A DNA stretch of 47,980 bases, from IMG/VR virus record IMGVR_UViG_2565956724_000008, positions 1-47,980 of that record; one strand, given 5' to 3'. The translations under genes were made by a program, and so were the position numbers. This DNA is from a virus (taxonomy: Duplodnaviria; Heunggongvirae; Uroviricota; Caudoviricetes). A model generated the notes under the pieces. The model did not search any database and was not told the DNA's origin. It saw only the letters and a program-made list of their open reading frames with translations. This document shows, one piece after another, positions 478-23,537 of this stretch. How positions within the stretch are numbered: the first letter of the stretch is position 1; each line of letters opens with the position of its first letter.

Positions 478-504
478 AAAAAATAAGCCCGTGTAAGGGA
501 GATT
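478..504. other. P2-type attachment site core (prophage/host junction)
   Basis: Sequence aaaaaataagcccgtgtaagggagatt matches the phage P2 att core as I recall it; located about 80 bp beyond the int stop, as expected for a P2 prophage end. Confidence 0.5.
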
Positions 505-583
505 TAGGGTGTCACCAGTAGGGGCTTTCAACGGTACAATGCGGGTTTGAGCGGCATAAATTACCACTGAAAGCCCTTAAACG

Positions 584-1597
584 TTACTCTACTGTGGACA
601 CTGTGTGGACACTCTCGGCCTCAGTACCACCTCTTAGCGGATTAAGAGAAATGGCGTCCTGAAGGTACTCTGGCGCAAAATGAGCGTAAACCATAGTTTG
701 CTCAATCCGCGTGTGACCTAGTATCCGTTGTAGCGTGATAATACTTCCTCCATTAATCATGAAATGAGTGGCAAAGCTGTGCCTTAGTGCATGTGTGGCT
801 TGCCCCATTGGCAAATCCGGTTTTATTGCTTTCATTGTTCGTCTGAAGCGAGGGTAATCAGCATCAGGGAATAAAAAACCTCGTTTGTTATCCGCGATCA
901 TTTTGGCAACAGCCTCTGAGATCGGGACGGTGCGTGGTTTGTTTGTTTTCGTTTTAACAAACGTGACGCGGTTATGGATGATATTTTCTGCTTTCAAACG
1001 AGCTGCTTCTCCCCAACGTGCTCCAGTACTCAGGCAAAGAATCGCAATCTTTTTGTTGTCGCCGTCAAGAGCAGCAAGCAGTAAGGCAATTTCTTCCTGC
1101 GTGAGATAGCCTGTGTCTGGTTTTTCCTCCTTAAGCCTTTTTGTCCCTCTGATAGGGTGCTCACCAAAGAATAACTCCGCTTCAATCAGGGCTGTAAACA
1201 TGCCGCTAATACATGTTAAATCACGATTGATACTCGAAGGTTTAATACCCTGACTTCTTCGGGTGGCGCAGTACTGGCTGATAAGCGATTTCGTAATTTG
1301 AAATGCGCATGGGTCATTCGTTATTTTTGTGAAGATTTCAATTTTTCCAAGATTAGATTTCCCATGCTCTTCGTGTTTACCCTTTAAATCCCACCAGATC
1401 TGTGTCAGCTCCGACAGACGTCGCTTGTCTGTTGGTTTTGATAGCCATTCTTTATTGTGGTGGTTGTACAACGTGTATTTCTCGAAAGCGACAGCTTCGC
1501 TTTTCTTATCAAACTTCCTACGGATGCGTTTTCCATTACGTCCAGTAGGGCGGATGTCCACTTCATATCGACCATCATCGAGTTTTTTGATTGCCAT
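584..1597 (-). CDS. int: tyrosine integrase (P2 Int-like)
   Basis: 337 aa, the same length as P2 Int; C-terminal HxLRHxxAT...Y catalytic region (ATHALRHSFATHF...VYAHF); adjacent to att core. Confidence 0.9.
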   Translation of the reverse strand: MAIKKLDDGRYEVDIRPTGRNGKRIRRKFDKKSEAVAFEKYTLYNHHNKEWLSKPTDKRRLSELTQIWWDLKGKHEEHGKSNLGKIEIFTKITNDPCAFQITKSLISQYCATRRSQGIKPSSINRDLTCISGMFTALIEAELFFGEHPIRGTKRLKEEKPDTGYLTQEEIALLLAALDGDNKKIAILCLSTGARWGEAARLKAENIIHNRVTFVKTKTNKPRTVPISEAVAKMIADNKRGFLFPDADYPRFRRTMKAIKPDLPMGQATHALRHSFATHFMINGGSIITLQRILGHTRIEQTMVYAHFAPEYLQDAISLNPLRGGTEAESVHTVSTVE

Positions 1598-1712
1598 CAG
1601 AAAACCCTCCGAGTGGTGTGTTTTTTTGCGACTACTAATCGCTTTTTTCGTGGTGGCTGAAATTTAGCCACCAATAGTAGGCACTTGTGATGAATATATT
1701 CACGATGAATTG

Positions 1713-2012
1713 TTAACCAGTCTTTTGACCGGAGTGGGGCGACGTTGTTTCGTTTTGCCCAAAGTGTGCGAGAGCGGGCGCAATTTGCCCGGACTCAGGA
1801 GCGATCTGATTGGTCATGAACCATAAAGTGTATTTGGTGAATTGTGGGGTCTGCAGGATGTTCATCATGACATCTGTTGGAGGTGTTGAACGACCACTTT
1901 CATAGTAACTCAGCGTGCCATACGGAACCCCTGTTAAATCAGCAAGTTGTTGTCTGCTCAAATACTCTGATTTTCGCATTAAGACTATCTTCTCGCTTAT
2001 CGTGTTTGACAT
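1713..2012 (-). CDS. C: immunity repressor C (P2 C-like, HTH)
   Basis: 99 aa as in P2 C; HTH-like segment (LSRQQLADLTGVPYGTLSYYE); divergent from cox across an operator-bearing intergenic region. Confidence 0.85.
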   Translation of the reverse strand: MSNTISEKIVLMRKSEYLSRQQLADLTGVPYGTLSYYESGRSTPPTDVMMNILQTPQFTKYTLWFMTNQIAPESGQIAPALAHFGQNETTSPHSGQKTG

Positions 2013-2015
2013 GGT

Positions 2016-2045
2016 GTTTAGATCTCAATAGTATTTAGTTTAGAT
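2016..2045. promoter_or_regulatory. C-repressor operator-like direct repeats (two GTTTAGAT copies spaced 22 bp) in the Pe/Pc switch region
   Basis: GTTTAGAT at 2016..2023 and 2038..2045 read from sequence, with an A/T-rich -10-like stretch between; matches the known P2 architecture of two 8-bp direct-repeat operators flanking the Pe -10. Confidence 0.5.
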
Positions 2046-2126
2046 GTAGATTGTTTAGTGCTTGGATGTGGGCACTAAAAGGCATTATAAGACATTAAAC
2101 GCAATTCATGAGGGCTAGAGGACGAC

Positions 2127-2402
2127 ATGAGCAAGCAAGTAACACTCATGACTGATGCGATTCCTTATCAGGAGTTCGCAAAACTAATAGGAAAATCGAC
2201 AGGAGCGGTTCGTCGGATGATCGATAAAGGAAAGCTGCCTGTAATTGATATGACCGATCCACAATCAGCTTCAGGTCGTGCTGGTGAATATTGGGTATAC
2301 CTTCCGGCATGGAATAACGGACTAAAACTGGCTTATGAAAGCCGACCTAAAGAGATTCGTGACGGCTGGTTGATGTGGTTAGGTCTCGGTGAACCACGTT
2401 AA
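2127..2402 (+). CDS. cox: Cox excisionase / transcriptional repressor of Pc
   Basis: 91 aa as in P2 Cox; first gene of the early rightward operon, opposite C. Confidence 0.85.
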   Translation: MSKQVTLMTDAIPYQEFAKLIGKSTGAVRRMIDKGKLPVIDMTDPQSASGRAGEYWVYLPAWNNGLKLAYESRPKEIRDGWLMWLGLGEPR

Positions 2403-2583
2403 GGAGAACCGTATGAATGAGCCTCGTTGTATTGCTCAGTTACTGCGTAACGAAAGCCCCAGGGCGATTGACTTCACCATCACCCACGGTAAGGGGCGTA
2501 AGGGAATCATTATCCGCACCAAAAAACAGAGTCCGTTAAAAAAGGCTCTGACCTTTCTGAAAAGCCGGAGGGTATGGAAATGA
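2389..2583 (+). CDS. hypothetical early protein (P2 orf78 position)
   Basis: Small basic ORF between cox and B, overlapping both gene ends; true start may be the internal MNEPRC. Confidence 0.45.
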   Translation: MNHVKENRMNEPRCIAQLLRNESPRAIDFTITHGKGRKGIIIRTKKQSPLKKALTFLKSRRVWK

Positions 2584-3080
2584 CAGTGATGACGCTCAAT
2601 CTCGTTGAAAAACAGCCAGCAGCTATGCGCCGGATAATTGGTAAGCATCTTGCCGTTCCTCGCTGGCAAGATACATGTGATTATTATAATCAGATGATGG
2701 AGCGCGAACGGCTAACAGTTTGCTTTCATGCGCAGTTAAAACAGCGTCACGCAACGATGCGTTTTGAAGAAATGAACGACGTCGAACGTGAACGACTGGT
2801 ATGTGCAATTGATGAATTGCGTGGGGCATTCTCAAAACGTCGTCAGGTCGGTGCAAGTGAGTATGCATATATTAGTTTTTTAACAGTCAGTCAGCGTCGT
2901 ACTTTATTTATGCATGCCGGATTGACTGAAAAAGAATTTAACCAGCCATACTGGCGAATTAATGAAGAGTCATGTTACTGGCGTGATGCTTTATTCCGTG
3001 CATTACGTGAATTATTCAGCCTGTTTGAGTATGCACCGACAATTCTGACGTCGGTAAAACCAGAGCAATATCTGCATTAA
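2574..3080 (+). CDS. B: replication protein B (P2 B-like, helicase-loader function)
   Basis: 168 aa versus P2 B of about 166 aa; position between cox and A. Confidence 0.75.
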   Translation: MEMTVMTLNLVEKQPAAMRRIIGKHLAVPRWQDTCDYYNQMMERERLTVCFHAQLKQRHATMRFEEMNDVERERLVCAIDELRGAFSKRRQVGASEYAYISFLTVSQRRTLFMHAGLTEKEFNQPYWRINEESCYWRDALFRALRELFSLFEYAPTILTSVKPEQYLH

Positions 3081-3143
3081 GTAATTAACCAGAGTTTTTA
3101 ACGCACTTAATCGTGCGGGGCTTCTTTTTGCCTGGAGAAAGTT

Positions 3144-3368
3144 ATGCATACAGTTTCTGAAAATCAGTGCGGTAAATACGCATTACTGCTGCAACAGGCC
3201 AGAACCGAAGCACAGGCCGACGCTGCGACGCGCTTTTCTTCTCATCTTGATGCCATGATTCGCCACATCACAAAGGCGGAGTTATCCCGCGTGGAGATAG
3301 TCGAGCTGCTCAGTCAGGAGTCGGAAAAATTTCACAATATCGGATTGTCTCGCGGGGAGGTGCTTTGA
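3144..3368 (+). CDS. hypothetical early protein (P2 orf80 position)
   Basis: 74-aa ORF in the B-to-A early operon, good coding context. Confidence 0.55.
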
Positions 3369-3670
3369 TGTCCTGTTCTCGTTCAGTTGTATTACTGAAT
3401 AACGCCTTAAAAATCGCCGTTATGAAAAATGGCGATTTGTCTCTTATTCAACTTGGTCTTGATAAAGAAAAACGCGAAATAACTGAGTCTGTTATCGCGA
3501 TTTATCAGAACGAATTAAACCTCCTGTCTGATGTGGTCAATTTGCTTGTTAAACGCGCTGTGTTTCACAAGCAAATCTCCTCCGTGGATGAACTGACGAA
3601 ATTAACGACAGAAATCGCCAGCTATTGCGCTGATGAATTTAAAAACCTTAACGACAAAAGGAACTGGTAA
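3365..3670 (+). CDS. hypothetical early protein (P2 orf81 position)
   Basis: 101-aa ORF; start overlaps the previous stop (ATGA), suggesting translational coupling. Confidence 0.55.
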
Positions 3671-3894
3671 TGCCGGACAACGTAGATTTTATTCAGGCAC
3701 AACAGGCTGAATTACTGGAGCGCCAGATTAACGCGGCAAGGGTAAAACATTGCGGTGCTTCTGCGATGGTTTGCGAAGAGTGTGACGCGCCAATACCTGC
3801 TGCCCGTCGTGCGGCTTATCCGTCAGCCACGCGTTGTGTTTCCTGTCAGTCAGTTTTTGAAGCAAAAAACAAACATTACCGGAGAACGGCATGA
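3670..3894 (+). CDS. TraR/DksA-family C4 zinc-finger protein (P2 orf82 position)
   Basis: 74 aa with CEEC...(17 aa)...CVSC four-cysteine motif typical of the TraR/DksA family. Confidence 0.65.
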   Translation: MPDNVDFIQAQQAELLERQINAARVKHCGASAMVCEECDAPIPAARRAAYPSATRCVSCQSVFEAKNKHYRRTA

Positions 3895-4166
3895 GTATTC
3901 GTATTGAAATTGGCGAACGTTATGTCGTTACCAGTGACAGCTTTCAGTTTATTCTCCACGAGAAAAAGAGAGCTGAAAGCGGTAAAAACGCCGGTCAGGA
4001 ATGGCTGGCGGTGGTTGGTTATTACCCGAAATTAAGCCAGCTCGTTTCCGGCCTGATGCATCACGATATTCTGACCGGAAGCGCAAAGTCTTTTGCTGAT
4101 TTAAACGCGCAGGTTGAGCAAATCAGCAAGCGTTGTTCAGAGGCTTTTGGCTCATATGGCCGTTAA
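3891..4166 (+). CDS. hypothetical early protein (P2 orf83 position)
   Basis: 91-aa ORF immediately upstream of and overlapping the A start. Confidence 0.55.
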   Translation: MSIRIEIGERYVVTSDSFQFILHEKKRAESGKNAGQEWLAVVGYYPKLSQLVSGLMHHDILTGSAKSFADLNAQVEQISKRCSEAFGSYGR

Positions 4167-6429
4167 AGCCTCCGGGCGTTTTGTCCCTCCGTCAGCATTT
4201 GCCGCAGGCACCGGTAAGACGTTTACCGGTGCTTATGCATGGAACGCGCCACGCGAGGCCGTCGGGCGCGAAAGACCCCTTACACGTGACGAGATGCGTC
4301 AGGTGCAAGGTGTTTTATCCACGATTAACCGCCTGCCTTACTTTTTGCGCTCGCTGTTTACTTCACGCTATGACTACATCCGGCGCAATAAAAGCCCGGT
4401 GCACGGGTTTTATTTCCTCACATCCACTTTTCAGCGTCGTTTATGGCCGCGCATTGAGCGTGTGAATCAGCGCCATGAAATGAACACCGACGCGTCGTTG
4501 CTGTTTCTGGCAGAGCGTGATCACTATGCGCGCCTGCCGGGAATGAATGACAAGGAGCTGAAAAAGTTTGCCGCCCGTATCTCATCGCAGCTTTTCATGA
4601 TGTATGAGGAACTCAGCGATGCCTGGGTGGATGCGCATGGCGAAAAAGAATCACTGTTTACGGATGAGGCTCAGGATCACCTGTATGGTCATGTTGCTGG
4701 CGCTGCACGAGCTTTCAATATTTCCCCTCTCTACTGGAAAAAATACCGTAAAAGACAGATGACCACGAGGCAGGCATATTCTGCCATTGCCCGTCTGTTT
4801 AACGATGAGTGGTGGACTCATCAGCTTAAAGGCCAGCGTATGCGCTGGCATGAAGCGTTACTGATAGCTGTCGGGGAGGTCAATAAAGACCGTTCTCCTT
4901 ATGCCAGTAAACACGCCATTCGTGATGTGCGTGCGCGCCGCCAGGCAAATCTGGAATTTCTTAAATCGTGTGACCTTGAAAACAGGGAAACCGGCGAGCG
5001 CATCGACCTTATCAGTAAGGTGATGGGCAGTATTTCTAATCCTGAAATTCGCCGGATGGAGCTGATGAACACCATTGCCGGTATTGAGCGTTACGCCGCT
5101 GCAGAGGGTGATGTGGGGATGTTTATCACGCTGACCGCGCCGTCAAAGTATCACCCGACACGTCAGGTAGGAAAAGGCGAAAGTAAAACCGTGCAGCTTA
5201 ATCACGGCTGGAACGATGAGGCATTTAATCCAAAGGATGCGCAGCGTTATCTCTGCCGTATCTGGAGCCTGATGCGCACGGCATTCAAGGATAATGATTT
5301 ACAGGTCTACGGTTTGCGTGTCGTCGAGCCACACCACGACGGAACGCCGCACTGGCATATGATGCTTTTTTGTAATTCACGCCAGCGTAACCAGATTATC
5401 GAAATCATGCGTCGCTATGCGCTCAAAGAGGATGGCGACGAAAGAGGAGCCGCGCGAAACCGTTTTCAGGCAAAACACCTTAACCGGGGCGGTGCTGCGG
5501 GATATATCGCGAAATACATTTCAAAAAACATCGACGGCTATGCACTGGATGGTCAGCTCGATAACGACACCGGCAGGCCGCTGAAAGACACTGCAGCGGC
5601 TGTTACCGCATGGGCGTCAACGTGGCGCATCCCGCAATTTAAAACGGTTGGCCTGCCGACAATGGGGGCTTACCGTGAACTACGCAAATTGCCGCGCGGC
5701 GTCAGCATTGCTGATGAGTTTGACGAGCGCGTCGAGGCTGCACGCGCCGCCGCAGACAGTGGTGATTTTGCGTTGTATATCAGCGCGCAGGGTGGGGCAA
5801 ATGTCCCGCGCGATTGTCAGACTGTCAGAGTCGCCCGTAGCCCGTCGGATGAAGTTAACGAGTACGAGGAAGAAGTCGAGAGAGTGGTCGGCATTTACGC
5901 GCCGCATCTCGGCGCGCGTCATATTCATATCACCAGAACGACGGACTGGCGCATTGTGCCGAAAGTTCCGGTCGTTGAGCCTTTGACTTTAAAAAGCGGC
6001 ATCGCCGCGCCTCGGAGTCCTGTCAATAACTGTGGAAAGCTCACTGGTGGTGATACTTCGTTACCGGCTCCCACACCTTCTGAGCACGCCGCAGCAGTGC
6101 TTAATCTGGTAGATGACGGTGTTATCGAATGGAATGACCCGGAGGTCGTGAGAGCGCTCAGAAGTGCATTAAAACACGGCCTGAGAAGACCAAACCGTCA
6201 GCAAAGAAACGGAAGCCCGTTAAAACCGCATGAAATAGCGCCATCGGCCAGACTGACCCGGTCGGAACGAATGCAAATTACCCGTATCCGCGTTGACCTT
6301 ACTCAGAACGGTATCAGGCCTCAGCGATGGGAGCTTGAGGCGCTGGCGCGTGGGGCAACTGTAAATTATGACGGGAAAAAATTCACGTATCCGGTTGCTG
6401 ATGAGTGGTCGGGATTTTCCTCAAACTAA
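4156..6429 (+). CDS. A: rolling-circle replication initiator endonuclease A
   Basis: Long ORF; I place the start at in-frame ATG 4156 (MAVKASGRF..., as in P2 A) rather than ORF-track 4114; P2 A is about 761 aa. Contains HxH-type (PHWHMM) and YIAKYISK motifs of rolling-circle Rep proteins. Confidence 0.9.
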   Translation: MAVKASGRFVPPSAFAAGTGKTFTGAYAWNAPREAVGRERPLTRDEMRQVQGVLSTINRLPYFLRSLFTSRYDYIRRNKSPVHGFYFLTSTFQRRLWPRIERVNQRHEMNTDASLLFLAERDHYARLPGMNDKELKKFAARISSQLFMMYEELSDAWVDAHGEKESLFTDEAQDHLYGHVAGAARAFNISPLYWKKYRKRQMTTRQAYSAIARLFNDEWWTHQLKGQRMRWHEALLIAVGEVNKDRSPYASKHAIRDVRARRQANLEFLKSCDLENRETGERIDLISKVMGSISNPEIRRMELMNTIAGIERYAAAEGDVGMFITLTAPSKYHPTRQVGKGESKTVQLNHGWNDEAFNPKDAQRYLCRIWSLMRTAFKDNDLQVYGLRVVEPHHDGTPHWHMMLFCNSRQRNQIIEIMRRYALKEDGDERGAARNRFQAKHLNRGGAAGYIAKYISKNIDGYALDGQLDNDTGRPLKDTAAAVTAWASTWRIPQFKTVGLPTMGAYRELRKLPRGVSIADEFDERVEAARAAADSGDFALYISAQGGANVPRDCQTVRVARSPSDEVNEYEEEVERVVGIYAPHLGARHIHITRTTDWRIVPKVPVVEPLTLKSGIAAPRSPVNNCGKLTGGDTSLPAPTPSEHAAAVLNLVDDGVIEWNDPEVVRALRSALKHGLRRPNRQQRNGSPLKPHEIAPSARLTRSERMQITRIRVDLTQNGIRPQRWELEALARGATVNYDGKKFTYPVADEWSGFSSN

Positions 6430-6601
6430 TAATGGTGTTTGACAAAGAGATGTTGATGAGACTAAGAATTTTATTTATCTGTATAACCATTCGGTTAGAG
6501 TACAATAGTTTCGAGTGATATGAATAAAAATAACGGCTAAGTTTTCAACATGCGATTGTTATGGGTTGGATTAAGGATAAGTAACTATATGAAATAATAT
6601 A

Positions 6602-6634
6602 GGGCAAGAAGGTGTTCTTGCCCTTTGTTTATTT
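6602..6634. terminator. bidirectional rho-independent terminator between convergent A and SIR2 genes
   Basis: gggcaagaa-ggtg-ttcttgccc hairpin followed by tttgtttattt on + and by a T-rich run on -; read directly. Confidence 0.6.
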
Positions 6635-9227
6635 AAGCGGCAATTTCCATATTGCTTTTATATTTTAAGAGAGCGTTTTGGGGAACTGCTGGCCAAGCTA
6701 AGAATCTATAATAGTTCATATAATCTTTTTCTATCAGGTTTTTTAGTTGTTTGTTTGCTTTAAATTCATCGTCAAGTAAAAAGAATGCACACATGGCTGC
6801 ATCACCTTTTGAATTGTTATGTGCTAAAACTGAATTTATGTCGTTTTCTTTAATGTCTTGATTGTCTTTTTTCTTGGCAACTTCTCTGTTTATTATTAAG
6901 ACATCTCTCTCTCTGTAGTCTTTAATTTTGTCAAGGTTTTCATTGACTATATTAATTGTTTCTTTATAGTTTCCTGCAAGCAGGTTGGTATAAGCTTTGC
7001 CTAAAATATAATTACTGAATCCATAACCTTTATCATAAGCTTCATCAAGAAGTTCTATCGCTTTTTTGAAATCACTGTTTAAAGATGCAATATCGGATTT
7101 TAATTTCAGAATGGTAATTTCTGATTTGTTTCTTGGCAGGCTGTCAATAAACTCTTCTGCCAGTTTGATGTTGTTTTTATTAATTAATAATATGTCCACA
7201 ATACTATCCGCATGATTACTCTTCCACGGATGATTCATGGCTTCTTTAGCTAATTCAATGCCTGCATTAATGTCTCTGTTGCAGCCTATCTCATATCGAG
7301 CTTTAAATATAATGAAAGGAGCAATTCTTGCAATGTCGCCCTCTTCTTCATATTTATCAATGAAGCCTTTCATTAAACTGGGAGTGTTTTCATCGAAGTC
7401 TGTTTCAAATAAAGACAGGTGTAGTTTTGTTAAATATCTTAATATGTTTCTCTTTTTGTTTTTCGATGACGTTTTGTAAATGTTGGATAATGTTTCTATG
7501 CACAATAATGTTTTTTCTTTTTTTTGTAATGCACAAGTAAAATCAGTGTATAACGACAAATATGTATCGTGGGTAGGGTTGATTTCATTTATTTGGTCGA
7601 GCATTTCTTGTATTAAATTATTACAATCTTTCTTATCATAGCTTGATTGATGTTTTATCATTATTGCGTCATATTTTATTCTCCAAGCGATATTGTCTAG
7701 ATCGCTACTTTGGAGTAAGCTCTTATCAATTAGGTTATGTATTTCATCAAAGGTTATTAATCCCTCGTCATGATTTTCCAGATGAAGAATAGCAATTCTG
7801 CTTAAATGATTCTTAAGGTTTATGCTATATGGGAATTTTTCTAGCAATCCCTTAAGGTAATGTATTTTTTCCTTTAGATCTGTGAATATGTTTGTTCTTG
7901 ATAGGGCGTAATTTATATTAAACTCATCAAGAGCGATAAGTTTATCACTGATTTCTAATGCAGACTTTGTATCTTTTTGTTCTTCTTTTATTTCAATTAG
8001 CCTGCGCAGGTATTTGGATTTTATATTGTCATTATCAGCGTTATCGATTAATTCCTTTAGTTTTGTCTCAGCGCTTAAATATTTTTTGTTTCTAATGAGG
8101 TTGTCAATGTATAACAAATTCTTGAAATTTTCTTCAGGGATCTTTTGATCGTCTAAGTCATTTTGGGATAACTCATTTATTAATGATGATATGTCATGTG
8201 TTAGAGTGTATCTTTTTAATTTTGAAAGATCGGATTTGATAATGTCATTTTTAGATAATTTGTACTCATCAGTTATAAAATTTTGGATCATCATCTCTCT
8301 TTTTGTGGATTTTTGATTCCCTCCAAAAGAGAGTGCGCAACCTAATTCAAGGGCTAGTTCTGCCATTAACTCATCAAAGCCTTCTATTTCTACCCAATAA
8401 ACTTTCTCTTGACCTAGAAGCCTAATTAGTTCTGGTGGGATGGCGTCATTTTGTCTTACGCACCAATATACCCCATTCCGTAGGTAATCGTCCTGTTTTA
8501 ATAAATGTTTTAAAACATCCATGATAGAGCTGTCATTGCCAGCATAACCAACAAAAATAATCCCGTATTCTTTAGTGAATTCAGTTAGTTTTTCACGAGT
8601 GTTACCTTCTAATGACTCGGTTTCTTTTAAAGAGCTTTTTATGCTATCAAATAGATAATCACCATGTAATTTTATTATTTTGGGTCTTGAAGAAGTAATT
8701 GAGACGCCTTTAATTGATGAGTCATGTGCGCATAATAATGGTCTGTCAGAAGAAAATTGATAAAATGCTTCATTTATTAAATCGTCAAAATTTGTTGTGA
8801 AGACAGTATCAAAAAACTTTGATTCAAATAGTTCAACGAGATAAGCATATCCAATTGAAGGTAATTTTTTGTCTACTTGAAGCTCAACAAATCTTCTGCG
8901 TTGAGATGGGAGATCAAATTTCTTTTCAAAAAGAGAGGAGTATTCATTGTTTGGGTCGTACCAGACTGGATGGTTTTTGGATAGCCATTTTTTAGCTTCT
9001 TCGGCATCGATATATTCTTCATTGGATAGTCTTGTGTATATCTCTTCTCTCCATTTTGCAACTAACTCTTGACCAGTTTTTATTCCTGATGTAACGGATG
9101 CACCAGCACCAAGAAAGAGTGAATAGTTAGGTGATGTACCTGATTTGATTTTTATATAATCAGCTAAATCTTTAACTGTTCTTTTTTTGGCAACCAGTTG
9201 TTCCTTGGTAGTATCACGATCAGACAT
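6633..9227 (-). CDS. SIR2-domain protein with long C-terminal helical-repeat region; candidate anti-phage NADase (DSR-like) in the P2 tin/old slot
   Basis: 864 aa; N-terminal motifs FLGAGASVTSG, TTNFDDL and KLHGDY match the sirtuin-like Rossmann NAD-binding fold; C-terminal ~550 aa is K/N/I/L/E-rich with TPR-like appearance; gene visibly AT-rich compared with flanking phage genes; GGAGGG Shine-Dalgarno before the ATG. Confidence 0.7.
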   Translation of the reverse strand: MSDRDTTKEQLVAKKRTVKDLADYIKIKSGTSPNYSLFLGAGASVTSGIKTGQELVAKWREEIYTRLSNEEYIDAEEAKKWLSKNHPVWYDPNNEYSSLFEKKFDLPSQRRRFVELQVDKKLPSIGYAYLVELFESKFFDTVFTTNFDDLINEAFYQFSSDRPLLCAHDSSIKGVSITSSRPKIIKLHGDYLFDSIKSSLKETESLEGNTREKLTEFTKEYGIIFVGYAGNDSSIMDVLKHLLKQDDYLRNGVYWCVRQNDAIPPELIRLLGQEKVYWVEIEGFDELMAELALELGCALSFGGNQKSTKREMMIQNFITDEYKLSKNDIIKSDLSKLKRYTLTHDISSLINELSQNDLDDQKIPEENFKNLLYIDNLIRNKKYLSAETKLKELIDNADNDNIKSKYLRRLIEIKEEQKDTKSALEISDKLIALDEFNINYALSRTNIFTDLKEKIHYLKGLLEKFPYSINLKNHLSRIAILHLENHDEGLITFDEIHNLIDKSLLQSSDLDNIAWRIKYDAIMIKHQSSYDKKDCNNLIQEMLDQINEINPTHDTYLSLYTDFTCALQKKEKTLLCIETLSNIYKTSSKNKKRNILRYLTKLHLSLFETDFDENTPSLMKGFIDKYEEEGDIARIAPFIIFKARYEIGCNRDINAGIELAKEAMNHPWKSNHADSIVDILLINKNNIKLAEEFIDSLPRNKSEITILKLKSDIASLNSDFKKAIELLDEAYDKGYGFSNYILGKAYTNLLAGNYKETINIVNENLDKIKDYRERDVLIINREVAKKKDNQDIKENDINSVLAHNNSKGDAAMCAFFLLDDEFKANKQLKNLIEKDYMNYYRFLAWPAVPQNALLKYKSNMEIAA

Positions 9228-9532
9228 TTTCCCTCCATAAATTATGCTGTGTGAAGTAAGAATAATCCTAGGTATGGCTATTTTTACATGAAATTCAATG
9301 GGTTTTCGTTTTTCTTATTTGCATTTTGTGACTGAGATCAAGCTATGAGGGAGAAATACTTTTTTATTGTTCGCTAGAGGCTAATTAGCTTGTACTAATA
9401 GTTTATGATGTACCATAGCGTTGAATGATTTTGCATGCATTTGTCAGATGCTTACTAATGTTGTTATGTCAGAGCTGGTGCGCTTTAGGTTATTTCATGC
9501 AACTGCATTAAAACCGTCTCATGAAGCGGGCG

Positions 9533-9551
9533 GGCGAGGCGGGGAAAGCAC
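9533..9551. other. cos cohesive-end site (P2-type 19 nt)
   Basis: ggcgaggcggggaaagcac matches the P2 cohesive-end sequence as I recall it; lies between the cargo gene and Q, as in P2. Confidence 0.55.
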
Positions 9552-9720
9552 TGCGCGCTGGCGGTGGTGCTGATTTTATTTTTTCAGCGTCTGAGCGCGT
9601 CGTGATGGCGTTTAGATTGTTCGCCGGGGCGTTGGTGTGTCTGTGGGATGTTTTGTGCGGTGGTGAGCGTGTGAGGGCGTGATGGCGGGTTGTAAAAAAG
9701 CCGCCCGCAGGCGGCGATGT

Positions 9721-12527: not shown

Positions 12528-12700
12528 GAATACCTCGCCGTGATGAATACACGGCAAGGCTACTGAGTCGCGCCCCGCGATTCGCTAAGGTGCTGTTGTG
12601 TCAGTGATAAGCCATCCGGGACTGATGGCGGAGGATGCGCATCGTCGGGAAACTGATGCCGACATGTGACTCCTCTAATCACTATTCAGGACTCCTGACA

Positions 12701-13555: not shown

Positions 13556-13613
13556 CCGGCGTCAGTCAGTCCGGGAAAACCTTCACGATTAACCCTTAAT
13601 TTCAGGAAAAACT

Positions 13614-14687: not shown

Positions 14688-14690
14688 CCG

Positions 14691-15434
14691 ATGACGAGTC
14701 CCGCACAGCGCCACATGATGCGGGTCTCGGCAGCGATGACCGCGCAGCGGGAAGCCGCCCCGCTGCGACATGCAACTGTCTATGAGCAGATGCTGGTTAA
14801 GCTCGCCGCAGACCAGCGCACACTGAAAGCGATTTATTCAAAAGAGCTGAAGGCCGCGAAAAAACGCGAACTGCTGCCGTTCTGGTTGCCGTGGGTGAAC
14901 GGCGTGCTGGAGCAGGGCAAAGGTGCACAGGATGACATTCTGATGACGGTCATGCTGTGGCGTCTGGATACCGGCGATATTGCCGGTGCGCTGGAGATTG
15001 CCCGTTATGCCCTGAAGTACGGTCTGACCATGCCGGGTAAACACCGCCGTACCCCGCCGTACATGTTCACCGAGGAGGTAGCGCTCGCGGCCATGCGCGC
15101 TCACGCTGCCGGTGAGTCTGTGGATACCCGCCTGCTGACGGAGACCCTTGAACTGACCGCCACGGCTGACATGCCTGATGAAGTGCGCGCAAAGCTGCAC
15201 AAAATCACCGGTCTGTTTCTGCGTGACGGTGGTGATGCCGCCGGTGCGCTGGCTCACCTGCAACGTGCGACACAGCTCGACTGTCAGGCAGGCGTCAAAA
15301 AAGAGATTGAACGACTGGAGCGGGAGCTGAAACCGAAGCCGGAGCCGCAGCCCAAAGCGGCCACCCGCGCCCCGCGTAAGATCCGGAGCGTGACACCGGC
15401 AAAACGTGGACGCCCGAAAAAGAAAGCCAGTTAA
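14691..15434 (+). CDS. M: terminase small (endonuclease) subunit M
   Basis: 247 aa as in P2 M; basic C-terminal tail. Confidence 0.85.
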   Translation: MTSPAQRHMMRVSAAMTAQREAAPLRHATVYEQMLVKLAADQRTLKAIYSKELKAAKKRELLPFWLPWVNGVLEQGKGAQDDILMTVMLWRLDTGDIAGALEIARYALKYGLTMPGKHRRTPPYMFTEEVALAAMRAHAAGESVDTRLLTETLELTATADMPDEVRAKLHKITGLFLRDGGDAAGALAHLQRATQLDCQAGVKKEIERLERELKPKPEPQPKAATRAPRKIRSVTPAKRGRPKKKAS

Positions 15435-15533
15435 CAACCGAATGCGCCCCGCGCCAGGGCGGCACGCCGGTCAGTGAGGGTGAATCACCTGACACTGCAC
15501 CGGCGTCCACCGCCCGACTTTTCAGAGGTAGTC

Positions 15534-16043
15534 ATGATGACGCTGATTATTCCGCGAAAGGAGGCTCCCGTGTCCGGTGAGGGTACGGTGGTCATCCCGC
15601 AACCGGCAGGCGACGAGCCGGTGATTAAAAACACGTTCTTTTTTCCCGATATCGACCCGAAGCGCGTCCGGGAACGTATGCGCCTTGAGCAGACCGTCGC
15701 CCCCGCCCGTCTGCGTGAGGCCATCAAGTCAGGCATGGCGGAGACGAATGCGGAGCTGTACGAGTACCGCGAACAGAAAATTGCCGCCGGTTTTACGCGT
15801 CTGGCGGACGTCCCGGCGGACGACATCGACGGTGAAAGCATCAAAGTTTTTTACTACGAGCGCGCCGTGTGTGCGATGGCGACCGCGTCGCTTTATGAAC
15901 GTTATCGCGGTGTGGATGCCAGTGCAAAAGGCGACAAGAAGGCCGACAGCATTGACAGCACCATTGATGAGCTGTGGCGGGATATGCGCTGGGCAGTGGC
16001 GCGCATCCAGGGCAAGCCGCGCTGCATCGTGAGTCAAATCTGA
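15534..16043 (+). CDS. L: head completion/stabilisation protein L
   Basis: Start placed at MMTLIIPRKE (ATG 15534), giving 169 aa as in P2 L. Confidence 0.8.
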   Translation: MMTLIIPRKEAPVSGEGTVVIPQPAGDEPVIKNTFFFPDIDPKRVRERMRLEQTVAPARLREAIKSGMAETNAELYEYREQKIAAGFTRLADVPADDIDGESIKVFYYERAVCAMATASLYERYRGVDASAKGDKKADSIDSTIDELWRDMRWAVARIQGKPRCIVSQI

Positions 16044-16246
16044 TGAAGACCTTTGCGCTACAGGGCGACACGCTCGACGCCATTTGTGTCCGGTATTACG
16101 GGCGCACTGAGGGCGTGGTTGAGACCGTGCTCGCCGCAAATCCGGGACTGGCTGAACTGGGTGCGGTGTTGCCGCACGGCACCGCCGTCGAACTGCCCGA
16201 CGTTCAGACCGCGCCCGTGGCTGAAACTGTCAATCTGTGGGAGTAA
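16043..16246 (+). CDS. X: tail protein X
   Basis: Start placed at MKTFALQGD (ATG 16043, overlapping the L stop), giving 67 aa as in P2 X. Confidence 0.8.
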   Translation: MKTFALQGDTLDAICVRYYGRTEGVVETVLAANPGLAELGAVLPHGTAVELPDVQTAPVAETVNLWE

Positions 16247-16249
16247 CGC

Positions 16250-16531
16250 ATGACAGCAGAAGAAAAAAGCGTCCTGTCGCTTTTCATGATTGGGGTGCTG
16301 ATTGTTGTCGGCAAGGTGCTTGCCGGTGGTGAACCCATCACCCCGCGTCTGTTTATCGGGCGCATGTTGCTCGGTGGTTTTGTCTCGATGGTTGCCGGTG
16401 TTGTTCTGGTGCAGTTTCCTGACCTGTCACTGCCTGCGGTGTGCGGTATCGGCTCCATGCTGGGTATCGCCGGTTATCAGGTGATTGAGATTGCCATTCA
16501 GCGCCGTTTTAAGGGCAGGGGGAAACAGTAA
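16250..16531 (+). CDS. Y: holin Y
   Basis: 93 aa; hydrophobic transmembrane segments; first gene of the lysis cassette as in P2. Confidence 0.8.
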   Translation: MTAEEKSVLSLFMIGVLIVVGKVLAGGEPITPRLFIGRMLLGGFVSMVAGVVLVQFPDLSLPAVCGIGSMLGIAGYQVIEIAIQRRFKGRGKQ

Positions 16532-18456: not shown

Positions 18457-18907
18457 GTTTAAGCGTTTTGAAGACCGGCTGACCGGACTGATTGAGTCGC
18501 TGTCACCGTCAGGGCGTCGGCGACTGGCGGTAGATATTGCGAAGAAGCTGCGCCAGCGCCAGCAGCAGCGAATTAAATTACAAAAAGCCCCGGATGGTAC
18601 GCCGTATGTACCGAGAAAAAACCAACCAGTACGAAATAAGAAAGGCCGGATAAAGCGGGAAATGTTTGTGAAATTACGCACTAACCGGTTTATGAAAGCA
18701 ACAGGTAGCGAGAGTGCGGCGGTGGTGGCGTTTGCCAGCGGAGTACAACGAATTGCGCGAGTACATCAATTAGGGCTTAGGGATAAGCCGGGGCGTAATA
18801 GTGCTGTGGTGGAATATCCTGTTCGTGAGTTATTTGGTTTTGACAAGGAATCTATACAATTGATAGAAAGGGAGTTATTAGTGATTCTATCGAAAGATGT
18901 TATATGA
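18449..18907 (+). CDS. S: tail completion protein S
   Basis: 152 aa (P2 S about 150 aa); precedes the cargo slot and V. Confidence 0.8.
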   Translation: MNEFKRFEDRLTGLIESLSPSGRRRLAVDIAKKLRQRQQQRIKLQKAPDGTPYVPRKNQPVRNKKGRIKREMFVKLRTNRFMKATGSESAAVVAFASGVQRIARVHQLGLRDKPGRNSAVVEYPVRELFGFDKESIQLIERELLVILSKDVI

Positions 18908-19659
18908 GACGGGTGTTTGTGGATAAAAAGTTTTCCATTTTGAGAAAAAGAGTAAAGCATTCTCAAAAGAAAGTTATGGATTGTATTATTGCTGACCATA
19001 ATGCTGATATATGTGTGTTATGCGGGAGTTCTGACGATATTACTCGTGAGCACATTATTCCTCAGTGGGCCTTTGAGTCAAATGCTGAAAAATCTTTAAT
19101 TAATAAAAAGAATAATCAGTCAACTCATTACATTAAAGCCACTGTACCAGCATGCAGAGTGTGCAATTCTGATTTGCTGGGAGTGTTTGAGTATAACCTG
19201 AAGAAATTTCTTACGGAAAAGAGAGGGGAGGAGTTAACAGATTATGAGTATGATTGCATCATATGGTGGTTGCAATACATGGGTTTTAAGTTGCAATTAA
19301 TGGATTTGCGGAACCGCTTTCTCAGGTATAAAGGTGGTGATTATATCCCGTTTCTTGCAAACTTCCCGGTTGCAATGTTTTGGGGGAATGTCGATACGAC
19401 GCCGGGGGATGTCTTCAGGATTATACGAAAATCGCGACGCAATCTGATGTCGAAATGGAAGGATAAAAAACATAATTCTTTGATGGTTTTTGAAACATCA
19501 AACAAGAGTTTTCATTTCTTTCATAAGGTTGATGAATTTATTTTTATTGAAATTCCTCAGGTTAAGAAGGCGTTTTTCTTCTTTTTTAATAAAGAATTTG
19601 ACAGCCATGATTTAGCTCATGAGGAGTGTATGAAGATTATAGAGAAGTGCTACAACTAA
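18904..19659 (+). CDS. HNH-motif protein, AT-rich cargo gene in the S-V slot (P2 orf30 position)
   Basis: 251 aa; CVLCG...REHIIPQW...CRVCN fits a CxxC/H/N/CxxC HNH nuclease motif; visibly AT-rich against GC-rich neighbours; start overlaps the S stop. Confidence 0.6.
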   Translation: MRRVFVDKKFSILRKRVKHSQKKVMDCIIADHNADICVLCGSSDDITREHIIPQWAFESNAEKSLINKKNNQSTHYIKATVPACRVCNSDLLGVFEYNLKKFLTEKRGEELTDYEYDCIIWWLQYMGFKLQLMDLRNRFLRYKGGDYIPFLANFPVAMFWGNVDTTPGDVFRIIRKSRRNLMSKWKDKKHNSLMVFETSNKSFHFFHKVDEFIFIEIPQVKKAFFFFFNKEFDSHDLAHEECMKIIEKCYN

Positions 19660-20372: not shown

Positions 20373-20716
20373 CAGCGCGTTATCTCGGAATGAATCGCAG
20401 TGATGGCCTGACTGTCACTGACCTTGAGCATATCAGCCAGAGTATCGGCGATATCCTGCGCACACCGGTCGGCTCACGGGTGATGCGTCGTGATTACGGC
20501 TCGTTGCTGGCGTCAATGATTGACCAGCCGCAGACCCCGGCGCTTGAGTTGCAGATTAAGGTCGCCTGTTACATGGCCGTGCTGAAATGGGAACCCCGCG
20601 TCACCCTGTCATCCGTCACCACGGCGCGCAGTTTTGACGGGCGAATGACGGTCACGTTAACCGGCCAGCACAACGACACCGGCCAGCCACTTTCGTTAAC
20701 CATCCCTGTGAGTTGA
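20369..20716 (+). CDS. W: baseplate protein W (gp25-like)
   Basis: 115 aa as in P2 W. Confidence 0.85.
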   Translation: MTARYLGMNRSDGLTVTDLEHISQSIGDILRTPVGSRVMRRDYGSLLASMIDQPQTPALELQIKVACYMAVLKWEPRVTLSSVTTARSFDGRMTVTLTGQHNDTGQPLSLTIPVS

Positions 20717-20720
20717 AACC

Positions 20721-21629
20721 ATGCCGATTATCGACCTGAACCAGCTACCCGCACCGGATGTGGTCGAGGAGCTGGACTTTGAAACCATTCTTGCCGAACG
20801 CAAGGCGACACTGATTTCCCTTTACCCGGAAGACCAGCAGGAGGCGGTCGCCCGTACCCTGACGCTGGAATCTGAGCCTCTCGTCAAACTGCTGGAGGAA
20901 AATGCTTATCGTGAGCTTATCTGGCGTCAGCGTGTGAATGAGGCTGCACGGGCGGTGATGCTGGCCTGTGCCGCCGGTAATGACCTTGATGTGATTGGTG
21001 CCAATTACAACACCACACGCCTGATTATCACCCCGGCAGATGATTCGACCCTCCCGCCGACACCGGCCGTGATGGAATCTGACACCGATTATCGTCTGCG
21101 TATTCAGCAGGCGTTTGAAGGTTTAAGCGTCGCCGGGTCGGTGGGGGCCTATCAGTATCATGGTCGAAGTGCCGACGGGCGTGTCGCAGATATCTCTGTC
21201 ACCAGTCCTTCTCCGGCCTGCGTCACCATCTCTGTGCTGTCACGTGAAAATAACGGTGTGGCATCCGAAGACCTGCTGGCGGTGGTGCGCAACGCCCTTA
21301 ATGGTGAGGACGTCAGACCGGTGGCCGACCGTGTGACCGTGCAGTCTGCCGTCATCGTTGAATACCAGATAAATGCCACGCTTTACCTTTACCCTGGCCC
21401 CGAAAGCGAACCCATTCGCGCTGCCGCCGTGAAAAAACTGGAAGCGTATATCACGGCACAGCACCGGCTGGGGCGCGACATCCGACTGTCTGCCATTTAT
21501 GCCGCTTTGCATGTGGAAGGCGTGCAGCGTGTCGAACTGGCTGCACCGCTGGCCGACATCGTGCTCAACAATACGCAGGCGTCTTTCTGTACCGAATACA
21601 GCGTCGTGACCGGAGGCTCGGATGAGTGA
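20721..21629 (+). CDS. J: baseplate protein J
   Basis: 302 aa as in P2 J. Confidence 0.85.
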   Translation: MPIIDLNQLPAPDVVEELDFETILAERKATLISLYPEDQQEAVARTLTLESEPLVKLLEENAYRELIWRQRVNEAARAVMLACAAGNDLDVIGANYNTTRLIITPADDSTLPPTPAVMESDTDYRLRIQQAFEGLSVAGSVGAYQYHGRSADGRVADISVTSPSPACVTISVLSRENNGVASEDLLAVVRNALNGEDVRPVADRVTVQSAVIVEYQINATLYLYPGPESEPIRAAAVKKLEAYITAQHRLGRDIRLSAIYAALHVEGVQRVELAAPLADIVLNNTQASFCTEYSVVTGGSDE

Positions 21630-22233
21630 TTCGCGACTGCTGCCGACCGGCTCATCACCGCTTGAAGTCGCTGCCGCAAAAGCCTGTGCGGAAATTGAAA
21701 AAACGCCGGTCAGTATTCGTGAGCTGTGGAACCCGGACACCTGCCCGGCAAATCTGCTGCCGTGGCTGGCGTGGTCATTTTCGGTTGACCGCTGGGATGA
21801 TAAGTGGCCGGAAGCGACAAAACGCGCTGTTATCCGCGATGCGTATTTCATTCACTGCCATAAGGGCACTATAGGCGCAATCCGGCGTGTGGTGGAGCCG
21901 CTCGGCTATCTGATTGAGGTGAGGGAGTGGTGGCAGCTCAACGAGGAGCCGGGGACGTTCCGCATCGTTGTTGGCGTGCTTGAGCAGGGTATTACCGAGG
22001 AAATGTATCAGGAGCTGGAGCGCCTCGTTGCTGATGCAAAACCGGCAAGCCGCCATCTGACGGGACTGGCTATCAGTTTAAGTACAACCGGCAACATTTT
22101 TGCCGGTGCGGGATGCTATCACGGTGACGCCCTGACGGTTTATCCCTACACCCCGGAGGCCATTATTGTCGGAGGGGATTATTTCCCGGCCTCGGCCATT
22201 CATTTAATTGATAACCTGAGAGTAAACGCATGA
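21622..22233 (+). CDS. I: baseplate/tail protein I
   Basis: 203 aa in the P2 I position immediately upstream of the tail fibre gene (P2 I is shorter). Confidence 0.75.
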   Translation: MSDSRLLPTGSSPLEVAAAKACAEIEKTPVSIRELWNPDTCPANLLPWLAWSFSVDRWDDKWPEATKRAVIRDAYFIHCHKGTIGAIRRVVEPLGYLIEVREWWQLNEEPGTFRIVVGVLEQGITEEMYQELERLVADAKPASRHLTGLAISLSTTGNIFAGAGCYHGDALTVYPYTPEAIIVGGDYFPASAIHLIDNLRVNA

Positions 22234-23537
22234 CAGTGAAATACTACGCCATTCTGACTAATCAGGGCGCAGCACGGCTGGCTAACGCGACGATGCTCGG
22301 CAGTAAGCTGAATCTGACGCAAATGGCCGTTGGTGATGCGAATGGTGTCTTGCCGACACCAGACCCGGCACAGACAAAACTGATTAACCAGAAACGCATC
22401 GCGCCGCTGAATCTTCTGAGTGTTGACCCGAACAACCAGAGCCAGATTATTGCGGAGCAAATCATCCCTGAGAACGAGGGCGGATTCTGGATCCGTGAGA
22501 TTGGGCTTTATGATGATGAAGGCGTACTCATTGCGGTGGCGAACTGCCCGGAAACGTACAAACCGCAGTTGCAGGAAGGCAGTGGTCGTACCCAGACTAT
22601 CCGCATGATTCTGGTTGTCACGAATACCGAAGCTATTACGCTGAAAATCGACCCGTCGGTGGTACTGGCGACCCGTAAATACGTGGATGATGAAGTCCTG
22701 GAATTAAGGCTGTATGTGGATGACCAGATGAGAAACCACATTGCCGCACAGGATCCTCATACCCAGTATGCACAGAAATATAATCCGACATTTACCGGAG
22801 AACCAAAAGCGCCGACGCCTGCCGCAGGGAATAACACCACGCGGATTGCGACCACTGAGTTTGTTCAGGCCGCTATTACCGCTCTGATTAACGGTGCGCC
22901 AGCCACGCTGGACACACTGAAAGAAATTGCCGCAGCCATTAACAATGACCCGAAATTCAGTACCACCATTAACAATGCGCTGTCAGGTAAGCAGCCACTG
23001 GATGAGACGCTGACTCATTTGAGTGGAAAGGATGTTGCCGGTCTTCTCGCATACCTTGGTTTGGGAGAAGGCTCTGCATTACCTGTTGGTGTGCCTGTTC
23101 CATGGCCTTCAGCCACACCGCCAACAGGCTGGCTGAAATGCAACGGTGCGGCTTTTTCTGCTGAAGAATACCCGGAACTGGCAAAGGCTTATCCGACAAA
23201 TAAATTGCCTGATTTACGTGGTGAGTTTATTCGTGGCTGGGATGACGGGCGCGGTATTGATGCAGGACGTGTTTTATTGAGCATTCAGACAGGGATGCTG
23301 GAAAAACACCGCCATATTGTTGTTGCCAATGATGGTTACGACACAAAAGATGAATGGGAACTGGCTACGATTTTCAAAAAGACATACACACAAGGACGGG
23401 GACTTGATGCCGCAAATACAGGAGGGAGTCTGATCCCATCACCGACACTTCATTCACGAGGGAGTATCGGTAATACTGGCGGGAGTGAAACCCGTCCACG
23501 AAATATTGCATTTAACTATATCGTGAGGGCTGCATAA
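22230..23537 (+). CDS. H: tail fibre protein H (constant N-terminal part plus variable tip Sv)
   Basis: 435 aa; N-terminal region resembles P2 H (MAVGD..., ELGLYDD...LIAVAN); C-terminal ~155 aa has a Mu/P1 S-like tail-collar pattern (PVPWPSATPPTGWLKCNGAAFS...). The constant/variable boundary falls at the hix-like site. Confidence 0.85.
   Translation: MTVKYYAILTNQGAARLANATMLGSKLNLTQMAVGDANGVLPTPDPAQTKLINQKRIAPLNLLSVDPNNQSQIIAEQIIPENEGGFWIREIGLYDDEGVLIAVANCPETYKPQLQEGSGRTQTIRMILVVTNTEAITLKIDPSVVLATRKYVDDEVLELRLYVDDQMRNHIAAQDPHTQYAQKYNPTFTGEPKAPTPAAGNNTTRIATTEFVQAAITALINGAPATLDTLKEIAAAINNDPKFSTTINNALSGKQPLDETLTHLSGKDVAGLLAYLGLGEGSALPVGVPVPWPSATPPTGWLKCNGAAFSAEEYPELAKAYPTNKLPDLRGEFIRGWDDGRGIDAGRVLLSIQTGMLEKHRHIVVANDGYDTKDEWELATIFKKTYTQGRGLDAANTGGSLIPSPTLHSRGSIGNTGGSETRPRNIAFNYIVRAA
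23044..23069. other. hix/gix-like 26-bp invertase crossover site (left)
   Basis: TTCTCGCATACC-TT-GGTTTGGGAGAA: two 12-bp imperfectly palindromic half-sites around a 2-bp core, close to Hin hixL (TTCTTGAAAACCAAGGTTTTTGATAA, recalled); arm symmetry ends 1 bp after it. Confidence 0.6.

Follow-up and report, generated by a model that had tools for sequence, protein, structure and literature searches.

The missing tail module of a P2-like prophage is most probably an assembly fold-back at an invertible tail-fibre cassette

In phage P2, the late genes run H, G, Z/fun, FI, FII, E, E', T, U, D and ogr up to attR. The viral record studied here, a stretch of 47,980 nt referred to as the window, follows a P2-like order as far as tail fibre H and then continues into its own reverse complement, which raises the question of whether the prophage is truncated or the record is wrong. 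An earlier note on this DNA had favoured an assembly artefact over a defective prophage. Our analysis supports this preference and assigns a probability of roughly 0.92 to the reading that the missing tail module results from an assembly fold-back at an invertible tail-fibre cassette, and is thus a database artefact, not biology. The window is gapless (0 Ns) and is 100% identical to positions 8877-56856 of GenBank scaffold KI538795.1 (GCA_000495075.1). The coordinates of its features are collected in Table 1.

Table 1. Features of the window, with strand and basis of assignment.
Feature	Position	Strand	Basis
Host gene yegR, chromosomal flank	1-318	+	Annotated yegR at matching E. coli D6 position; PF27694 YegR in related loci
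attL core of P2-like prophage, 27 nt, AAAAAATAAGCCCGTGTAAGGGAGATT	478-504	+	Same 27-mer in relatives
P2-like prophage left arm, genuine and intact	584-23057		Colinearity with complete prophages; Pfam families
Tail-fibre H constant part (Hc), residues 1-276, Phage_tail_fib N-terminal domain	22230-23057	+	Shared ORF N-terminus; PF12571
H-side 26-bp Din-family crossover site, TTCTCGCATACC TT GGTTTGGGAGAA	23044-23069	+	Half-site comparison; dix consensus
Invertible P-segment-type cassette, 1,866 nt (1.87 kb)	23058-24923		ORFs; Pfam; both orientations in public assemblies
Hv1, Collar domain	to 23537	+	ORF; Pfam
G1, Caudo_TAP	23537-24139	+	ORF; Pfam
G2, Caudo_TAP	24111-24551	-	ORF; Pfam
Hv2, Gp53-like_C	24573-24923	-	ORF; Pfam
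Second crossover site as in the window, TTCTCCCAAACC AA GGTATGCGAGAA	24912-24937	+	PE144 alignment; blastn; site table
Mirror copy of 1-23055	24926-47980	-	Arm comparison; scaffold context

The left part of the window is an ordinary prophage arm. From int to H, its genes follow the P2 order and belong to P2 families, as seen by Pfam in two loci identical to the window (L011 and L032) and in the annotation of L001 and L002. The arm opens with int, C, cox, B, A, a SIR2 cargo gene, Q, P, O, N, M, L and X. These are followed by holin, lysozyme, LysA/B/C, R, S, a 251-aa orf, V, W, J and I, and last comes the N-terminal portion of H, which is constant. All of these genes are intact, judged by the Pfam families of the genes called in L011 and L032, and the arm is colinear at 98.5-99.3% with the complete prophages L001, L008 and L030. 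L011, the source scaffold, is 100% identical to the window across 20,603 nt, and L032 (record 37630-60224) is 100% identical to window 28754-47980 (19,227 nt) and carries yegS, HAD hydrolase and MFS genes beyond this match. The yegR gene at the outer end of the arm is mirrored at 47663-47980; the palindrome arms therefore include host DNA. The att core occurs once per arm (mirror copy at 47477-47503) and is found between ogr and yegQ in 7 complete relatives. A search of the window with this 27-nt P2 core revealed no attR. The fibre, assembly, SIR2 and 251-aa proteins matched no NCBIfam family above its curated cut-off. The prophage integrase is very widespread, being present in 21,233 blocks of the contig collection.

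The module expected to the right of the cassette is absent from the window. With proteins of the E. coli PE144 prophage, whose cassette region is 99.8% identical, as tblastn queries, invertase, FI, FII, E, E', T, U, D and OgrK gave no window match better than E = 0.28 (the best match for the serine invertase had E = 2.2), while H and J of the same prophage, used as positive controls, were found at E = 0. The tblastn result and the single att core per arm thus confirm the earlier statement that FI, FII, E, T, U, D, ogr and attR are lacking from the window, a lack that we attribute to misassembly and not to the phage. In this regard, all 9 intact relatives, in either cassette orientation, carry a Gin-like invertase gene directly after the cassette, followed by FI-FII-E-E'-T-U-D-ogr (Resolvase+HTH_7, sheath, tube, TAC, GpE, tape measure, GpU, GpD and Ogr_Delta in Pfam terms). 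The relatives' invertase matches Mu Gin (PDB 3UJ3) with E = 1e-94, and it is the most telling of the missing genes. Two details of the earlier expectation need correction: a Pin/Gin-type invertase gene, not Z/fun, stands after the fibre genes in this lineage, and the absent piece is not about 10 kb long, as the distance from crossover site to attR is exactly 7,451 nt in 7/7 relatives with attR in view. The reported absence of Ogr holds for the window, but nothing suggests that it extends to the genome. The closest full-length comparator is the 4.87-Mb contig JABXTU010000001.1 (L008 and L030; 99.0-99.3% identical). Among RefSeq complete genomes none has the entire mosaic of arm and cassette, and the best covers 87%.

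In place of the module, the window folds back on itself, as had been noticed earlier. By string comparison, the arms 1-23070 and 24911-47980, of 23,070 nt each, are 100% reverse-complementary with 0 mismatches, and they enclose a core of 1,840 nt. A perfect inverted repeat of 23 kb cannot arise by chance, and one of the two arm copies is spurious. Inspection of KI538795.1 indicates which: the right copy runs on into yegS and 1.27 Mb of chromosome, and therefore the copy at 1-23055 is the dangling fold-back. This second arm copy begins 8.9 kb from the start of the scaffold. Thus, the suggestion that a mirrored arm had replaced real sequence holds as to the artefact but not as to the replacement, since the arm was appended as a dangling duplicate near the scaffold start. 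The inner arm boundaries coincide with the 26-bp crossover sites. The interval singled out by the earlier note starts at 478, in the attL core, and ends at 23070, the final arm base, 1 base beyond the H-side site.

The arrangement of ORFs and domains identifies the core as a Pin/Gin-type invertible tail-fibre cassette (Hv1-G1 / G2'-Hv2'). Two alternative variable C-termini can be joined in frame to the constant part of H, and each is accompanied by an assembly-protein gene of its own, in mirrored arrangement; the resulting ORFs, 22230-23537 (435 aa) and 24573-25751 (392 aa, minus strand), have a common N-terminus through ...LAYLGLGE, with PF12571 present in both. The cassette is bounded by two inverted 26-bp sites that fit the dix consensus and have an AA/TT centre. 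The H-side site (compared with PMC3241671, Table 3), within which the left arm's inner end falls, has its central dinucleotide at 23056-23057, and its inner half is the reverse complement of TTCTCCCAAACC, the inner half of pixL/pixR. The inner half of the second site is likewise genuine, but its outer half is the H-side half repeated. At this position, genomes with the cassette in one of its two orientations (state A) carry the invertase-side half CGTTTATGAAAA, which is that of e14 pixR, and the window parts from these genomes after base 24925, in the PE144 alignment as well as by blastn, where the match ends at 24925. The H-side outer half-site is consequently found at both cassette ends in the window, an arrangement that cannot result from inversion. 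Many E. coli genomes contain cassette-like sequence in several copies, with a median of 2 places per genome and a maximum of 10, and the same G1/G2 cassette is found also in a Mu-like prophage (L007).

Comparison of the junctions with those of other loci leads to the same picture. For each locus, mismatches were counted against 100-mers spanning the left and right cassette junctions of the window. Five state-A loci match the left junction perfectly (0/100) but differ from the right one at 29/100 positions; in four loci with the opposite orientation (state B), the counts are 28/100 and 0/100, respectively. Both orientations thus exist in nature, with exchange at the central dinucleotide and reciprocal half-site combinations. 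The left window junction is that of state A and the right one that of state B. Each of the 9 other loci carries one, and only one, of these junction 100-mers, and none shows the palindrome (0/9); both junctions are matched at 0/100 only in the source scaffold, which combines mutually exclusive states. These mutually exclusive junctions, together with the module in 9/9 intact relatives and the identity with a draft scaffold, make an artefact far more likely than a defective remnant.

On the fold-back reading, the left side of the real prophage is most likely ordered yegS-yegR-attL-int...I-Hc, followed by a pix-like site, Hv1-G1-G2'-Hv2' and pixR. To the right of pixR, the most likely order is pin-type invertase-FI-FII-E-E'-T-U-D-ogr-attR-yegQ. 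By recombining the two 26-bp sites at their central dinucleotide, the serine invertase would invert the 1.87-kb cassette, and therefore the sequenced culture probably contained both orientations, with Hc joined to Hv1 in part of the molecules and to Hv2 in the rest. The assembly graph would then offer two ways from Hc into the cassette, one at each end. The assembler presumably walked from Hc through Hv1, G1, G2' and Hv2', left through the other Hc junction read backwards, and retraced the same 23 kb, probably further, as reverse complement, which would explain why a perfect palindrome stands close to the beginning of KI538795.1. The true continuation would be missed by this walk; in relatives it measures 7,451 nt from invertase to attR, and here it should form the end of a different scaffold, beside yegQ. 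We infer that the invertase-to-ogr module is present elsewhere in GCA_000495075.1. Such events have precedents. About 50% of the reads from prophage tail-fibre segments of E. coli EC958 were inverted and spurious contigs resulted, and the authors explicitly warn of artefactual duplications in phage regions (PMC4134206). Similarly, both orientations coexist for P2-like prophages in EPEC cultures (PMC4272514). Confusion of the assembler by the inverted repeat alone was considered and rejected, as the true sites share only 14 nt of perfect inverted identity, which is not enough to confuse a k-mer graph unless the orientations are mixed.

Other assemblies also end near the arm boundary. The Logan contig SRR958580_4, part of an independent assembly probably of the same strain or clone as the source scaffold and 100% identical to the window and host flank, ends by coordinates at window ~23,111, 41 nt past the arm boundary and not exactly at the position predicted for a k = 31 graph branch. 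Two further draft contigs end at window ~23,047-23,048, and G1 is found solely on contigs < 2 kb in 66/252 collection blocks.

The alternatives differ in whether the junction is taken to exist in the cell. A defective remnant, in which the invertase-to-ogr segment was truly deleted from the strain's chromosome, would account for the module's absence from the window, and real degraded P2 remnants do occupy the same yegR/yegQ site in other strains (L015, L022 and L027). In these remnants, however, the deletion junctions connect parts of the prophage with one another or with the host chromosome, ogr is retained beside yegQ, and 0 fold-backs are seen. The window cassette is joined to a base-perfect mirror arm, not to host or foreign DNA, and its mirror junction is exactly the state-B junction; moreover, all left-arm genes are intact instead of decayed, and both junction states require a recently active invertase. 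With no deletion junction, this explanation was rejected as very improbable. An artefact of another kind, namely a hairpin or chimeric read (a missed adapter or an inverted chimera of the MDA type) or the collapse of two related prophages in one genome, is very unlikely. In its favour, contig ends are well known for hairpin artefacts (PMC4134206 discusses them), cassette-like sequence is often multi-copy, and the G1/G2 cassette occurs in the Mu-like prophage as well. A random hairpin chimera would not break exactly at the central dinucleotide of both crossover sites, on which ground it was rejected, nor would it match the natural state-B junction at 100/100. That junction could instead come from a second related prophage of the same genome in the opposite state, but this prophage would need an identical Hc, and the result would still be an artefact.

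The remaining possibility is that the palindrome is genuine and that the chromosome contains an inverted duplication of 23 kb or more with the cassette at its centre. Invertase-mediated exchange between sister chromosomes could have formed it, as could replication template switching at inverted sites. The breakpoints at recombination sites and the gapless window are in keeping with this, and the 1.84-kb spacer would reduce hairpin instability. Against it, the arms show 0 mismatches across 23 kb and contain host DNA, one of them lies 8.9 kb from a scaffold end, and a circular chromosome would need a second, compensating junction. Furthermore, Din invertases require sites in cis on one supercoiled molecule and a Fis-bound enhancer. 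SRR958580_4, of identical sequence, appears by its coordinates to end near the boundary without the palindrome, which is absent from the 9 other cassette-bearing loci. We therefore regard a genuine palindrome as highly improbable, and its formation by a Pin-type invertase or template switching, with the invertase-to-ogr segment lost or displaced, as extremely so. If true, it would represent a site-specific-recombinase-driven palindromic rearrangement of a bacterial chromosome.

With the fold-back reading preferred, the missing-module feature is not real, and its value is practical, not biological; Pin/Gin-type invertible fibre cassettes for host-range switching in P2-like prophages are already well known. 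The deposited scaffold KI538795.1 (GCA_000495075.1) would carry a spurious inverted duplication of at least 23 kb that makes an apparently intact P2-like prophage appear truncated and Ogr-less, doubles ~35 genes, among them the defence-type gene SIR2, and gives rise to a "giant palindrome". It would mislead prophage-completeness callers and distort pangenome gene counts as well as scans for palindromes or defence islands. An identical outer half-site flanking both sides of a cassette offers a base-level diagnostic for contigs that chain two orientation states.

The locus was also compared with known systems. Gene order and Pfam domains of the window left arm are those of phage P2 and its family, attL and the relatives' attR have the att core 27-mer in common, and the relatives' FI-FII-E-E'-T-U-D-ogr stand in P2 order. 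It differs from P2 in having an invertible cassette and invertase instead of a single G and Z/fun, and a SIR2 cargo gene between A and Q. With the e14 P segment/Pin, the Mu G segment/Gin and the P1 C segment/Cin it shares a constant fibre N-terminus followed by mirrored Sv-U / U'-Sv', as well as 26-bp sites with an AA/TT centre, whereas the cassette here lies within a P2-like prophage, replacing Z/fun. The inner half-sites equal the pix inner half of e14 pixL/pixR, the relatives' invertase-side site is identical to e14 pixR and their invertase is close to Mu Gin, while the H-side outer half GGTATGCGAGAA differs from the pixL outer half GGTTTTCGAGAG (4/12 positions). In the Din family, the invertase gene contains a Fis-dependent recombinational enhancer towards its 5' end; here that gene lies outside the window. 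The nearest precedent for the artefact itself is EC958 (Forde et al. 2014, PMC4134206), likewise with a 2-3 kb E. coli prophage fibre cassette, 26-bp invertase crossover sites, both orientations in the sequenced culture (here only probable) and false extra sequence from the assembler. In the PacBio assembly of EC958 the alternative state appeared as separate small contigs, whereas in KI538795.1 the two states seem to be chained into a single path, and the resulting fold-back palindrome, 48 kb or longer, hides the true right arm.

The window is one perfect palindrome: in a string check, nucleotides 1–23070 and 24911–47980 were 100% reverse-complementary with 1,840 nt between them, and no Ns were found. 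This bears out the claim of the earlier note that the sequence folds back on itself, with the turn at 23070. Each arm carries a complete and intact P2-type left arm, from int through the first 276 codons of the tail-fibre gene H, in the order int, C, cox, B, A, SIR2-family cargo gene, Q, P, O, N, M, L, X, holin, lysozyme, LysA/B/C, R, S, 251-aa ORF, V, W, J, I and H. Gene identities were taken from the annotation of E. coli D6 and PE144, and from Pfam families of the genes called in L011 and L032, two loci of the source scaffold with 100% identity to the window. The unique core between the arms is the fibre cassette in mirror-image layout, and the N-terminus common to both H reading frames extends up to ...LAYLGLGE. 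Pin-type invertible fibre cassettes in P2-like prophages have been described before.

Features of the palindromic arms and the fibre cassette core
Feature	Position	Strand	Mirrored position or location
yegR, host gene	1-318		outermost in each arm
att core, 27 nt	478-504		after yegR in each arm
SIR2-family protein, 864 aa	6633-9227	-	38754-41348 (+)
251-aa ORF between tail genes S and V	18904-19659	+	28322-29077 (-)
H-side crossover site, TTCTCGCATACC TT GGTTTGGGAGAA	23044-23069		end of left arm
Hv1 (variable C-terminus of H, Collar domain) and G1 (assembly gene)		+	core
G2 (assembly gene) and Hv2 (variable C-terminus of H, Gp53-like_C)		-	core
Second crossover site, reverse complement of the H-side site	24912-24937		start of right arm

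Proteins encoded downstream of the cassette were searched against the window by tblastn, using the PE144 prophage, whose cassette region is 99.8% identical to that of the window. The invertase, FI, FII, E, E', T, U, D and OgrK gave a best match of only E = 0.28, whereas the positive controls H and J matched at E = 0. In addition, each arm has a single att core, and attR was not found in the window. The window thus lacks the module, as previously claimed. The missing stretch had been put at about 10 kb; each of the seven relatives with attR in view has 7,451 nt running from the crossover through the attR core, which gives 7.45 kb instead.

Exact look-up of the G1 protein gathered ten public loci. 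Four of these and PE144 hold the cassette in state A (constant part of H, Hc, joined to Hv1), and four hold it in state B (Hc joined to Hv2). In all nine intact loci (eight and PE144), the cassette is followed by a Resolvase+HTH_7 gene, sheath, tube and tail assembly chaperone, and then by GpE, tape measure, GpU, GpD and Ogr_Delta, ending at yegQ in seven and at the pfl locus in two. In intact relatives an invertase occupies the place after the fibre genes where Z/fun had been expected. One 100-mer across each window junction was compared with these loci. State A loci (five) showed 0 mismatches at the left junction and 29 at the right, and state B loci (four) showed 28 and 0, respectively; among the loci tested, only L011, from the source scaffold, matched both with 0 mismatches. 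The window therefore chains a state-A left junction to a state-B junction read backwards. Colinearity with PE144 holds through base 24925, in the central AA of the second site, and is lost from the next base, where PE144 proceeds to the recombinase gene and the window returns into H. Every real locus has the H-side outer half-site at one cassette end and the invertase-side outer half-site at the other; the window has the H-side outer half-site at both. The mirrored arm was appended, rather than substituted for genuine sequence as the earlier note had supposed.

L011, on GenBank scaffold KI538795.1 (1,326,264 nt; GCA_000495075.1), is 100% identical to window 13537–34139, and L032, also on this scaffold, matches window 28754–47980 at 100% before running on into yegS, a HAD hydrolase and an MFS gene; the window therefore corresponds to KI538795.1 positions 8877–56856. 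In that record, 1.27 Mb of chromosome follows the right arm without a break, and 8.9 kb separates the left arm from the scaffold start. Past yegS, the source-strain flank carries HAD hydrolase, MFS transporter, FGGY kinase and mannitol dehydrogenase genes (L032 19633–22581, L033 1–5440); in most other strains the gat (galactitol) operon occupies this place (L002, L013–L016). Logan contig SRR958580_4 (50,492 nt) is 100% identical to window 1–16429 and shares the unusual host flank over 19,797 nt with 0 mismatches, and the run was matched to the source strain because this host-side replacement beside the att site is common to both. By its coordinates, the contig ends at window ~23,111, about 40 nt beyond the arm boundary. 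Two further draft contigs with the same A protein end at ~23,047–23,048, inside the crossover site, and in 66 of 252 collection blocks G1 occurs solely on contigs shorter than 2 kb. Independent drafts of near-identical prophages (L033, L036, L037) have inferred contig ends within ~45 nt of the crossover site. Both cassette flanks are commonly assembler breakpoints, and culture heterogeneity at the cassette seems routinely to break or mislead assemblies.

Din invertases would account for a template of mixed orientation. Given reads of both states, a graph path could enter the cassette from Hc and exit at the other end into Hc in reverse; the opposite state could alternatively be supplied by a second related prophage. 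The true sites share perfect inverted identity of just 14 nt, too little for the repeat by itself to mislead a k-mer assembler; a mix of orientations is required. For E. coli EC958, the alternative orientation of prophage tail-fibre segments bounded by 26-bp crossover sites was found in roughly half of the reads, and spurious contigs arose (PMC4134206). Both orientations have also been measured side by side for P2-like prophages in EPEC cultures (PMC4272514).

The absence of the module is no real feature of the prophage, and the artefact preferred in the earlier note is supported once size, invertase and appended arm are corrected. A real defective remnant does not fit the mirror junction or the intact genes. 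In other strains, true remnants at this yegR/yegQ att site (L015, L022, L027) are quite unlike the window, showing internal deletions with ogr kept beside yegQ, and illustrate by contrast how a genuinely defective prophage appears; in one example portal–SIR2 is joined to E-T-U-D-ogr, and in another int-C-cox is joined with pieces of the sheath, tube, D and ogr genes. A real chromosomal palindrome is likewise contradicted, by the zero divergence between arms, their inclusion of host DNA, the position near a scaffold end and, probably, by the independent assembly SRR958580_4, which by its coordinates stops about at the boundary. It also conflicts with the cis requirement of Din-type enzymes, as Din invertases act in cis. 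A random hairpin read is rejected, since it would not break at both central dinucleotides. The mirror-image assembly warrants a flag on the public record and offers a diagnostic for such errors.

The arms also contain cargo. The SIR2-family gene, in a low-GC island (0.36–0.39), is flanked by replication gene A and portal gene Q; in its protein, matches were confined to the N-terminal ~300 residues, with the PADLOC Aga_SIR2 / pAgo-associated SIR2 models (E = 5e-59) and Pfam SIR2_2, and the C-terminal ~500 aa gave none. Relatives carry a reverse transcriptase, OLD-like ATPase, SIR2+DUF87, HNH, DprA-like gene or AAA ATPase at this position, which looks like the P2 anti-phage cargo hotspot. The 251-aa ORF lies where GC is lower (0.47) and gave no match in Pfam, NCBIfam or PADLOC; relatives have 246-, 248- or 251-aa variants, and it is missing from the otherwise near-identical D6 prophage (L002). 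Its position may be a second cargo slot.

D6 is the prophage nearest the window across its left 22 kb, at 99.5% for the first 10 kb. The similarity ends near the I/H border, and D6 (L002 41390–46000, against window 22055 onward) has a different fibre, with a 736-aa H, one assembly gene, and neither cassette nor invertase; the whole block of fibre genes and invertase is thus a unit of mosaic replacement. An identical G1 protein and the same G1/G2 cassette occur in L007 (GCA_012824155.1, AATIPH010000002.1; 8898–11678), a prophage called Mu-like on its Mu Gp45-48 baseplate genes, with an exact e14 pixL site and a 184-aa resolvase. The cassette is therefore a module exchanged among P2-like, Mu-like and e14-type prophages. 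For the invertase of the relatives, the match to Mu Gin (PDB 3UJ3) has E = 1e-94. Both boundary sites of the window are 26-bp Din-family crossover sites, and their inner half, TTCTCCCAAACC, is the same as that of e14 pixL/pixR. The far-side cassette site of the intact relatives, TTCTCCCAAACC AA CGTTTATGAAAA, is identical letter for letter to the published e14 pixR (Table 3 of PMC3241671).
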